The position numbers and the translations under genes are program-made. A DNA stretch of 64,000 nt from an uncultured Eubacteriales bacterium (GTDB taxonomy: Bacteria; Bacillota; Clostridia; Christensenellales; UBA1242): contig CABUZJ010000003.1 of assembly GCA_902496015.1 (NCBI GenBank), positions 82,402 through 146,401 on the forward strand. The letters run 5' to 3'. The notes below the pieces were generated by a model that was not told the origin of the DNA, made no database searches, and worked only from the letters and a program-made list of their open reading frames with translations. Of this stretch, positions 10,679 through 12,478 are shown piece by piece; the first letter of the stretch is position 1; the number at the start of each line of letters is the position of its first letter.

Positions 10679-12478
10679 TTATTTTTCAATTTCATCTAAG
10701 CTTTCCAATAAGTCATTTACTACATTTAATTCATCGTTATCTTTTTTGTCATTTTTGTTATTTGTTTTATTAGTTCTAGATTTAGATTTATTATTAGAAT
10801 AAGTAATTTTAGTATCGGTTTTTAAGACCTTTGTTAAATTAACATTAAAACCATTATCCTTTACTTCATCTAAAAAAGTATTGTTATATAAATTCCTAAT
10901 TCTAGCTAATTTAGGGTCAATTTCTAAAGCTTTTATTAAAACTTCTTTAAGTCCTTTAAAACCAGCTATATGTAAAAATGTTTTGCCTTCTTCATCTTGA
11001 ATTTCTGCTAATTTAGGATTAATTTCCAATGCTTTTATTAACACTTCACTATATCTTTCTTCTGCTGCATCATGTAAAAATGTTTTGCTTATTCCATCTT
11101 GAATTTCCGCTAGTTTAGGGTCAATTTCTAAGGCTTTAATTAAAACTTCTTCAAGCCCATAAAAAACGGCATAATGTAAAAATGTATTGCCATCTTTATT
11201 TTGAATTTTTGCTAATTCTGGGTTAGTTTCCAATACTTTAATTAAAACTTCACTAAGTCCACCTATTGTGGCACCATGCAAAATTGTACTGCCTTTTTCA
11301 TCCTGAATTTTTGCTAATTTTGGATTAATTTCTAAGGCTTTTAACAATACTTCTCCTAAACCTTTATATCCTAATCCTTTATAGGCTGCATTATGTAAAA
11401 ATGTATAATCTCTTTTATTTTGAATTTCTGCTAATTTTGGATTAATTTCCAATGCTTTTAGCAAAACTTCACTAAGTCCATTTTCTGCTGCATTATGTAA
11501 AAATAATTTGCCTTCTTCATCTTGAATTTCTGCTAATTTTGGATTAATATCCAATGCTTTTAGCAAAACTTTACTAAGTCCATTTTCTGCTGCATTATGT
11601 AAAAATGTTTTGCCTTCTTCATCTTGAATTTCTGCTAATTTGAGATTAATATCCAATGCTTTTAGCAAAACTTTACTAAGTCCATGTTCTGCTGCATTAT
11701 GTAAAAATGTTTTGCCTTCTTCATCTTGAATTTTTGCTAATTTAGGATTAATTTCTAAGGCTTTTAACAATACTTCTCTTAATCCATTATAGGTTGCATT
11801 ATGTAAAAATGTTTTGCCTTCTTCATCTTGAATTTCTGCTAATTTAGGATTAATTTCCAATGTTTTTATTAACGCTTCACTAAGTCTACTTAATGCGGCA
11901 TAGTGTAAAAAAGAATTATCCGCATAATCTAAAATCTTAGCTAATTTGGGGTTTATTTCTAATGCCTTAATTAATACTTCACTAAGCCCGTTTTCTGCTG
12001 CATTATGTAAAAATGTATAATCTCTTTTATTTTGAATTTCTGCTAATTTAGGATTAACTTCTAATGCCTTAATTAATACTTCACTAAGTTCATATTCCGC
12101 TGCATTATGTAAGAATGTGTCGTAATCTTCATTTTGAATCTCTGCTAATTTTGGATCAACTTCTAATGCCTTAATTAATACTTCACTAAATCCGTTTTTT
12201 ACTGCCTTATGTAAAAATGTTTTGCCTTCTTCATCTTGAATTTCTGCTAATTTTGGATACGTTTCAACAACAAAGCAAAGAAAATCAGTATATCCATATC
12301 TTAAACATAAATCAATAATAGTTTTACCCCAATACATTGTCGTTTTCTTAGTAAGAAAATCTATATTAGCTGCATTTTTAAAAAATTTTATTAAGATCTG
12401 TTCTATTTCTTTTGGGTCAACTTTAGTGTTCTTTTCCAAACTTTTTATTCTATCAAAAATTCTATCAATTTCGTTCAT
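10679..12478 (-). CDS. Ankyrin-like repeat protein, 599 aa, about 14 tandem 34-residue repeats
   Basis: Repeat unit PKLAEIQDEEGKTFLHNAAENGLSEVLLKALEIN contains the ANK core G-x-T-x-LH-x-A-A-x-x-G...V/LL. No signal peptide or TM segment. Unique N-terminal ~70 aa and a K/N-rich then acidic C-terminal tail. Confidence 0.75.
   Translation of the reverse strand: MNEIDRIFDRIKSLEKNTKVDPKEIEQILIKFFKNAANIDFLTKKTTMYWGKTIIDLCLRYGYTDFLCFVVETYPKLAEIQDEEGKTFLHKAVKNGFSEVLIKALEVDPKLAEIQNEDYDTFLHNAAEYELSEVLIKALEVNPKLAEIQNKRDYTFLHNAAENGLSEVLIKALEINPKLAKILDYADNSFLHYAALSRLSEALIKTLEINPKLAEIQDEEGKTFLHNATYNGLREVLLKALEINPKLAKIQDEEGKTFLHNAAEHGLSKVLLKALDINLKLAEIQDEEGKTFLHNAAENGLSKVLLKALDINPKLAEIQDEEGKLFLHNAAENGLSEVLLKALEINPKLAEIQNKRDYTFLHNAAYKGLGYKGLGEVLLKALEINPKLAKIQDEKGSTILHGATIGGLSEVLIKVLETNPELAKIQNKDGNTFLHYAVFYGLEEVLIKALEIDPKLAEIQDGISKTFLHDAAEERYSEVLIKALEINPKLAEIQDEEGKTFLHIAGFKGLKEVLIKALEIDPKLARIRNLYNNTFLDEVKDNGFNVNLTKVLKTDTKITYSNNKSKSRTNKTNNKNDKKDNDELNVVNDLLESLDEIEK
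10816..12256 (-). repeat. In-frame 102-bp tandem repeat array (coding, ankyrin-like units)
   Basis: Period 102 nt. Central units 11531-11632 and 11633-11734 differ at only 4 positions by my manual alignment. Confidence 0.85.

Follow-up and report, generated by a model that had tools for sequence, protein, structure and literature searches.

A long array of 34-residue ankyrin-like units in a putative scaffold protein of an uncultured Clostridia bacterium

The 64,000-nucleotide stretch of DNA analyzed here (hereafter, the window), part of contig CABUZJ010000003.1 from an uncultured Eubacteriales bacterium, encodes a 599-residue protein that is composed largely of tandem 34-residue units and that modeling predicts to be an ankyrin-repeat (ANK) solenoid with a slightly lengthened linker. 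We favor, with a probability of roughly 0.6, the interpretation that it is a soluble ANK solenoid acting as a protein-binding scaffold, likeliest in the bacterial cytoplasm, and that its gene is accessory. The protein and its relatives appear to make up a small unnamed family, so far confined to uncultured Clostridia from apparent animal-gut samples. The fold itself is ordinary and not categorically new, and the family is a new, unnamed subfamily of this very well-known fold. The gene in question is as follows.

10679..12478, minus strand: coding sequence of the 599-aa ANK-repeat protein, with an ATG start and the stop codon included

The preliminary description of this DNA, which was made from the sequence alone, had placed the repeats in the ANK class, and profile scores, structure predictions and fold comparisons all uphold this assignment. 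The Pfam profile Ank_2 matches at 5.9e-41 with 139.4 bits (cut-off, 27.3), and four other ANK profiles also exceed their cut-offs (Ank_5, 98.6 bits; Ank_3, 74.4 bits; Ank_4, 72.9 bits; Ank, 44.8 bits). The tetratricopeptide repeat (TPR) profiles TPR_11 and TPR_17 match at 1e-17 (64 bits) and 1.4e-08, respectively, with no single TPR stretch passing alone. AlphaFold2 (AF2) was run twice, with a 3-sequence alignment (predicted local distance difference test score [pLDDT], 87.3; predicted template modeling score [pTM], 0.78) and with a 20-sequence alignment (pLDDT, 89.3; pTM, 0.81), and gave an ANK-type solenoid. The unit is the same in both models and has pLDDT values above 95: a helix of 7 residues (FLHNAAE), a 3-residue turn, a helix of 10 residues (SEVLIKALEI), a short helix of 5 residues (PKLAE) and an 8-residue loop (IQDEEGKT). 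When compared with the Protein Data Bank (PDB) using Foldseek, all 50 of the 50 best matches were ANK proteins, among them ankyrin-1, NOMPC, AnkB, DARPins (designed ankyrin repeat proteins), TRPA1 and latrotoxins.

The unit sequence shows the same affinity. Its consensus scores 173 against the 33-residue ANK consensus and 102 against the consensus TPR, and the ANK signature residues G11, T13, F14, L15, H16, A18, A19 and G22 are conserved both in the units and family-wide, with L15, H16 and A18 invariant in 14 of 14 regular units. The period, by contrast, is not the 33 residues of ANK repeats but 34 (102 nt), and 48 of the 68 unit spacings measured across the family are also 34. This feature, already remarked upon in the earlier reading, is accounted for by one inserted residue per unit, which sits in the inter-repeat linker (INPKLAEIQ, compared with GADV-NAK in ANK). 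Moreover, an alignment of the query with the ANK array of NOMPC spans 291 versus 289 residues; therefore, natural ANK arrays with a period of about 34 residues exist, and a 34-residue period does not disqualify the protein.

The alternative, that this is a TPR protein bearing a 34-residue period and the motif KALExxPxxAE as TPR hallmarks, is in our judgment barely tenable, although plain sequence comparison appears at first to speak for it. The best sequence match in the PDB is an engineered consensus TPR protein (9qhb; 8.5e-34), which aligns gap-free over more than 350 residues and ranks ahead of NOMPC and TRPA1, and TPR proteins account for about half of the distant database matches. The unit also contains residues G8, A27 and P32 of the TPR signature and hydrophobic residues at positions 11, 20 and 24, with W4 and L7 absent (replaced by Q and E). 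However, the TPR alignments are free of gaps because both periods are 34, and their identities are limited to the junction motif, KALE(I/L)(N/D)P(K/R)xAE, and one glycine. TPR units consist of two antiparallel helices of ~14 residues (12-15), whereas the helices predicted here span 7, 10 and 5 residues. In addition, TFLHxAAxxG is an ANK signature, the ANK profile score is more than twice that for TPR (139 versus 64 bits), and TPR proteins are absent from the 50 best Foldseek matches. On the basis of the profile scores, the predicted helix lengths and the Foldseek comparison we reject the TPR assignment. What the protein shares with consensus TPR proteins (9qhb, 8bu0 and 2fo7) is thus the 34-residue period and the junction motif, KALE(L/I)(D/N)P(R/K)xAE in their case, while its helix lengths and predicted fold are ANK-like. 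This resemblance has practical consequences: in a plain sequence search the KALExxPxLAE junction yields a stronger match to consensus TPR than to any ANK protein and can mislead annotation. Indeed, a precomputed TPR_11 match is already recorded for one close relative.

At the DNA level, Tandem Repeats Finder reports a 102-nt period at 10900-12258 (13.2 copies, 77% matches, score 1235). Cutting the protein at its P-K-L-A-E-I anchor gives 14 units starting from residue 75, of which twelve are exactly 34 residues long, one has 39 residues and the last is degenerate. In each of units 1-13, between 21 and 32 of the 34 residues agree with the consensus PKLAEIQDEEGKTFLHNAAENGLSEVLIKALEIN (mean, 80%). 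The DNA identity between units, computed on a 16-unit allele described below, is 65-96% (mean, 77%), and only three adjacent units reach 93-96%. Hence, of the ~14 near-perfect 34-residue repeats first proposed, the period and the number stand, while "near-perfect" does not hold for units that are 80% alike in protein and 77% in DNA. Similarly, the N-terminal segment of ~70 residues that had been called unique proves to be so only in part: a degenerate capping repeat occupies residues 45-74, which leaves a three-helix module of ~44 residues followed by ~15 ANK-like units in all. The K/N-rich basic stretch and the acidic tail that follows it are both present as described. The protein is laid out as follows, from the N terminus.

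12347..12478, minus strand: residues 1-44, family-specific N-terminal helical module (helices 3-16, 22-36 and 39-43 predicted; pLDDT 78-88 with the 20-sequence alignment)
12257..12346, minus strand: residues 45-74, degenerate N-terminal capping ANK unit (WGKTIIDLCLRYGYTDFLCFVVETY); predicted helices 54-61 and 64-73 extend the repeat pattern
10916..12256, minus strand: residues 75-521, thirteen regular ANK units (twelve of 34 aa, one of 39 aa) with the consensus PKLAEIQDEEGKTFLHNAAENGLSEVLIKALEIN
11354..11383, minus strand: 15-bp tandem microduplication (YKGLG YKGLG) adding GYKGL to unit 9 (Tandem Repeats Finder period 15, 2 copies)
10835..10915, minus strand: residues 522-548, degenerate last unit or C-terminal cap (beginning PKLARIRNLYNNTFLDEVKDNGFNVNL; 13/34 consensus matches)
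10748..10834, minus strand: residues 549-577, basic linker rich in K, N, S and T, predicted to be disordered (net charge +6; pLDDT below 50 in both models)
10682..10747, minus strand: residues 578-599, acidic C-terminal segment (NDELNVVNDLLESLDEIEK, net charge -5); helix 578/581-598 predicted, pLDDT 34-48

The microduplication is the reason that unit 9 has 39 residues, and across the last unit (residues 522-548) the pLDDT falls from ~93 to 57. Residues 1-44, which matched no Pfam family, are conserved across the family and together with residues 45-74 constitute the module that defines it; GKT..D, FLC.V.E and P75 are invariant in the three closest proteins. A Kyte-Doolittle scan showed no transmembrane segment (maximum 19-residue mean, 1.31) and inspection revealed no export signal at the hydrophilic N terminus, in accord with the earlier remark that a signal peptide and a transmembrane segment are lacking, the signal peptide being judged by inspection and the hydropathy scan. 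Two further ideas about the protein were considered. The notion of an acidic DNA mimic arose from a first estimate of about -4 net charge per unit, but the computed values for the whole 599-aa protein (net charge -20, pI 5.4) are unremarkable, and it was dropped. Autoinhibition by a tail lying in the groove, as in AnkR and AnkB, is without support, as the pLDDT of the tail is below 50 in both AF2 models.

Comparison with canonical ANK proteins (PF12796, PF13857, PF13606, PF13637 and PF00023; ankyrin-R/B, NOMPC, TRPA1 and DARPins) shows that they have in common with the window protein the TxLHxAAxxG motif, a long solenoid of helix-turn-helix units with loops (predicted in the present case) and a sequence variability that falls on the tip of the loop and the last part of helix 1. 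In contrast to these proteins, the window protein has a period of 34 instead of 33 residues, an (I/V)(N/D)PKLAE linker with a predicted extra 5-residue helix in place of GADVNA, and an N-terminal module without a Pfam match, and DSSP assigns no strands in most of its units. It also differs from typical bacterial ANK proteins in having ~15 units compared with a mean of 4-6 (PMC3932732).

In the window protein the variable unit positions are 9-12, 17 and 19-22, and in 20 gap-free units from other family members they are 9, 10, 12, 17, 20, 21, 24 and 25. Several of these are x sites of the D-x-x-G-x-T-P-L-H-L-A-A-x-x-G motif, which we take to form the ANK binding surface, and several correspond to positions that Binz et al. 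in 2003 reportedly randomized in DARPins. The framework codons, when compared between units, give a ratio of nonsynonymous to synonymous substitution rates (dN/dS) of 0.13 at a dS of 0.77, which indicates that the similarity of the units in protein sequence is maintained by purifying selection and not by recent duplication.

A full-length search of 5.8 billion clusters revealed two close relatives only, at 47-49% identity, all other matches being generic ANK or TPR proteins. These relatives, P0001 from an uncultured Clostridia metagenome-assembled genome (MAG; BRZ_FA bin71) and P0002 from an uncultured Lachnospiraceae MAG, are like the window protein in the first ~75 residues, where the N-terminal module lies, and share its 34-residue ANK units and charged C-terminal tail. 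They differ from it in having ~14 and 7 units, respectively (by the unit hidden Markov model [HMM]), other tails and unrelated neighborhoods. With the window protein as seed, the family was defined by a module of ~75 residues at residue 1 (M-x-N-x-I-D ... E-Q-x-L-I ... G-K-T-L-I-D-L-A ... F-L-C-x-V-x-E-K-Y-P-x-L-A) followed by ANK units. When 1.84 billion representative proteins were searched exhaustively with an HMM of the N-terminal module, 37 matched, and in about 25 of these the module stands at residue 1 and is followed by 1-14 units of the 34-residue type and a charged tail; among 185,579 species genomes the family is found at 2 loci. Scans with the three-protein alignment (A1) found no relatives among the 2.9 million viral contigs of IMG/VR and none in the JGI metagenome contigs; one distant member, P0124, was found on JGI contigs. 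A word-indexed search that used the N-terminal profile yielded nothing beyond two fragments of the window gene. The family is probably undercounted, since most short-read assemblies that were examined contain its array in a collapsed or broken form.

The family contigs that were examined are all bacterial DNA of low to mid GC (30-42%), and those that are labeled belong to Clostridia. Six neighborhoods were informative (rpmB/rpe; rpoC; pepF/tlyA-like; rpiB/rsfS; scpAB/PBP5; clpX), a seventh contig being too short, and they have no neighbor gene in common and no secretion, toxin, defense or sporulation partner. With relatives so rare and never syntenic, the gene is aptly described as the least housekeeping-like of its neighborhood. 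A 157-aa neighbor (9970-10443) was considered as a conserved partner and set aside, having no similarity to the neighbors of P0001 and P0002. We regard an apparent recurrence of ribosome-biogenesis genes nearby (rpmB, rsgA and rlmN; rsfS, obg and yhbY; tlyA-like) as uninformative, given the high density of such genes in these genomes. Two observations concern individual members. In a MAG of 42% GC (GCA_947625515.1), two tandem paralogues of 333 and 225 aa (L014 4731-5732 and 6001-6678) lie between rpiB/low-molecular-weight phosphatase and rsfS. In P0001 (L001 8001-9878), the called start adds 41 residues ahead of the family-module start, M-K-N-D-V-D, and the annotated start is probably too far upstream.

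A different kind of doubt concerns the array itself, which might be an assembly artefact, or its gene a decaying pseudogene; we attach almost no weight to either. Several observations do point in that direction. Three conspecific contigs (L010, L011 and L013) end within the array, two assemblies reduce it to 4 units and 1 unit, one version has a stop at codon 49, and the exact 599-aa sequence is missing from a 15-billion-protein collection in which the neighboring proteins are present. However, collapse removes units but cannot create them, and all 14 units differ; thus, an array of at least 14 units is real. Over 1800 nt, in a genome with 30% GC, no internal stop interrupts the reading frame, which persists through the entire array with a periodicity far above chance, and the low dN/dS of the framework likewise argues against decay. 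L010 and L013 match the window at 100% identity as far as these contigs extend. An independent 641-kb contig (L009), with flanks 99.3% identical, carries a collinear gene for a 667-aa version with 16 units, which is identical to that in the window except for two extra units (204 bp, in frame), and relatives with the same architecture occur in other taxa. The possibility of an assembly artefact, which the preliminary description had itself raised, therefore leaves the gene unaffected and bears on its copy number (16, 14, 4 or 1 units). The difference between 14 and 16 units may be a true polymorphism generated by unequal recombination, and its junction lies at the following position.

11887..12018, minus strand: junction of the 204-bp, two-unit length difference relative to the 16-unit allele of L009; ~130 bp are near-identical in both registers

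The four-unit allele is found on L008 (~6714-7478), the flanks of which are 98.7% identical; it has an in-frame stop in place of W49 and several substitutions in the N-terminal module, and is either pseudogenized in that strain or the product of an error in sequencing or assembly. The Logan contig L021, also conspecific, encodes a 186-aa version with one regular unit. On the same contig (L019 7644-13844), an element of ~6.6 kb lies beside the 3' end of the ANK gene, between a 161-aa gene and a 31-aa open reading frame (ORF), and encodes a Rep protein (ORF2/G2P-type), a large serine recombinase, a C5 cytosine methylase and two proteins of unknown type. No such element is present in the corresponding spacer of the window, 10444-10502.

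The ANK gene had been described as a stand-alone transcription unit, and the signals around it accord with this, as it has terminators with a hairpin and U-tract on either side and its own promoter-like site and ribosome-binding site.

12501..12529, minus strand: promoter-like site, TTAACT–17-nt spacer–TATCAT, with TG before the -10 (consensus scan, 9/12 matches)
12485..12490, minus strand: ribosome-binding site AAGGAG, 6 nt 5' of the ATG, read from the sequence
10657..10680, minus strand: intrinsic terminator of the ANK gene (10-bp stem, 4-nt loop and U-tract), beginning in the stop codon
12568..12601, minus strand: terminator of the upstream rpe gene (8-bp AT-rich stem and long U-tract), dividing rpe from the ANK gene

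The RNA folds of the two terminators have energies of -13.6 kcal/mol (z = -4.6 versus shuffles) for the ANK gene and -11.1 kcal/mol (z = -5.9 versus shuffles) for rpe. The promoter-like site is, by consensus match only, a candidate promoter of the sigma-A type with an extended -10, and no convincing match to a sporulation-sigma promoter was seen by eye. The window also encodes SpoIVA (31624-33102), from which it follows that the host is an endospore-former, as the preliminary description had supposed.

Several other genes of the window deserve mention. Just 3' of the ANK terminator is a 31-aa ORF (MTIVCIKAPKALSGILKLFVKKEKTYIDNKT; 10503-10598, minus strand) with the ribosome-binding site GGGGGAAAG, a promoter-like site at 10627-10654 and its own terminator at 10468-10490; it is present in the gene calls of all conspecific assemblies, varies only at its C terminus and has no Pfam match. 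The 157-aa protein at 9970-10443 (plus strand), convergent with the ANK gene, is kept in all conspecific contigs and has no match in Pfam, PHROG or PADLOC. The longest ORF of RlmN (radical SAM; 14214-15272, minus strand) has 352 aa, but the downstream start is probably the true one because most assemblies call a 345-aa product. Farther away are eight tRNA genes, seven clustered on the plus strand (27098-27995) and one on the minus strand (26794-26876), an adjoining gene for an Eco57I-like/N6 DNA methylase domain protein (25242-26537, minus strand) and, beside the latter, a gene for a 180-aa protein without a Pfam match (24685-25227).

Our favored explanation for these features is that of a modular scaffold. 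The N-terminal three-helix module would be the constant part common to all family members, while the variable ANK array would act as the reader, its groove accommodating extended peptides or partner proteins, whether one or several. The site of action would likeliest be the bacterial cytoplasm, since no export signal was seen, and the length of the array may be changed by unequal recombination between units. We consider the gene to be accessory because it is rare and non-syntenic and because one strain has the four-unit allele with a stop, if this is not an assembly error.

Several points weigh against the scaffold interpretation or the structural and evolutionary picture behind it. DSSP assigns a strand to the 8-residue loop (IQDEEGKT) in only one unit per AF2 model, so that most units are without the beta-hairpin strands. 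The AF2 alignments were shallow, with 3 and 20 sequences, and AF2 is well trained on ANK repeats. The one-unit version, and probably the four-unit version too, looks like a short-read collapse. True polymorphism has support for 14 versus 16 units only, and these also come from short-read metagenome assemblies. The surface positions have a dN/dS of ~1, a value biased upward as the positions were picked for their variability; because they were picked after that variability had been seen, relaxed constraint and diversifying selection are indistinguishable at these sites. The scaffold function draws on analogy with other ANK proteins. Finally, release by lysis, on spores or by an unrecognized route would be compatible with the lack of a Sec signal.

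Among the other functions considered, the one that holds up best, though we think it unlikely, is that of an effector directed against a eukaryote, either the animal host or gut protists, which would be released non-classically and bind host proteins. ANK proteins are enriched in host-associated bacteria, and ~15 units is exceptional when compared with the bacterial mean of 4.3-6.1 repeats per protein (PMC3932732). The sample names of the family suggest gut metagenomes, as we read labels such as ZEEV15. The best matches outside the family are animal ANKRD44/52 proteins, the putative binding surface is variable and the array differs in length between assemblies. In addition, small-genome gut Clostridia with eukaryote-like proteins have been proposed to be protist endosymbionts (PMC10579323). 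However, the window protein has no transmembrane segment and a hydrophilic N terminus, no secretion system is encoded in the neighborhoods examined, and its identity with eukaryotic ANK proteins, at just ~27%, reflects a generic similarity between repeats. There is also no sign of a recent transfer from a eukaryote, since the GC content of the gene (27.4%) is close to that of the window (30.0%). The Dot/Icm effectors of Legionella and Coxiella (AnkX, AnkY and AnkG) give partial matches in their repeat regions, with AnkX at Foldseek rank 43. Unlike them, the window protein has no catalytic or translocation domain, and no matching secretion gene lies beside its locus or those of its relatives; the corresponding NCBIfam models NF043028, NF043029 and NF043022 score 70.3, 63.7 and 45.3 bits against cut-offs of 1400, 600 and 500.

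Doubtful to a greater degree is a role in conflict within or between bacteria, in which the protein would confer immunity to a polymorphic toxin or belong to an anti-phage or phage-counteracting system, its variable ANK surface keeping pace with a fast-evolving opponent. A comparative survey of polymorphic toxin systems (PMC3482391) is said to discuss ANK repeats. The protein matches the PADLOC 'Ankyrin' model at 2.2e-29, its gene is accessory, patchy and variable in length, and a mobile element with a serine recombinase adjoins it in one strain. ANK proteins are also reported to serve as immunity proteins in polymorphic toxin systems. Yet no toxin, nuclease or defense gene is adjacent in the loci examined, and the PADLOC and PHROG matches are to generic repeats only, the best stretch covering positions 747-841 of the 880-position 'Ankyrin' model. 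With these generic matches, and with no IMG/VR relatives in the A1 scan, a phage or defense origin was rejected. Least credible among these functions is a sporulation or spore-surface scaffold, for which speak the SpoIVA gene of the host and a relative located ~8 kb from a YunB-family spore gene, and against which stand the sigma-A type of the promoter-like site, the lack of an adjacent sporulation gene in the window, family neighborhoods made up of unrelated housekeeping genes and a family far rarer than sporulation is in Clostridia. The link to host association or sporulation drawn in the preliminary description accordingly finds no support at present, there being no export signal, no conserved sporulation or secretion neighbor and a promoter-like site of the sigma-A type.

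The soluble scaffold that we favor is of interest for being rare and long, long ANK arrays being unusual in bacteria, and for mimicking TPR sequences. If a partner is found, the protein might reveal either an intracellular adaptor system not seen before or a means for Gram-positive commensals of the gut to reach eukaryotic or phage targets. A bolder version of this idea, which we offer as speculation that is probably wrong, is that a constant N-terminal handle joined to a DARPin-like variable ANK array makes these proteins an unrecognized class of natural binders of uncultured gut Clostridia, in which the handle docks on a conserved machine or an unrecognized export route and the hypervariable surface, polymorphic in length, tracks a fast-evolving host, protist, phage or toxin target. 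Were this true, the difference between the 14- and 16-unit alleles would be functional, the outcome of an arms race and not of neutral slippage.

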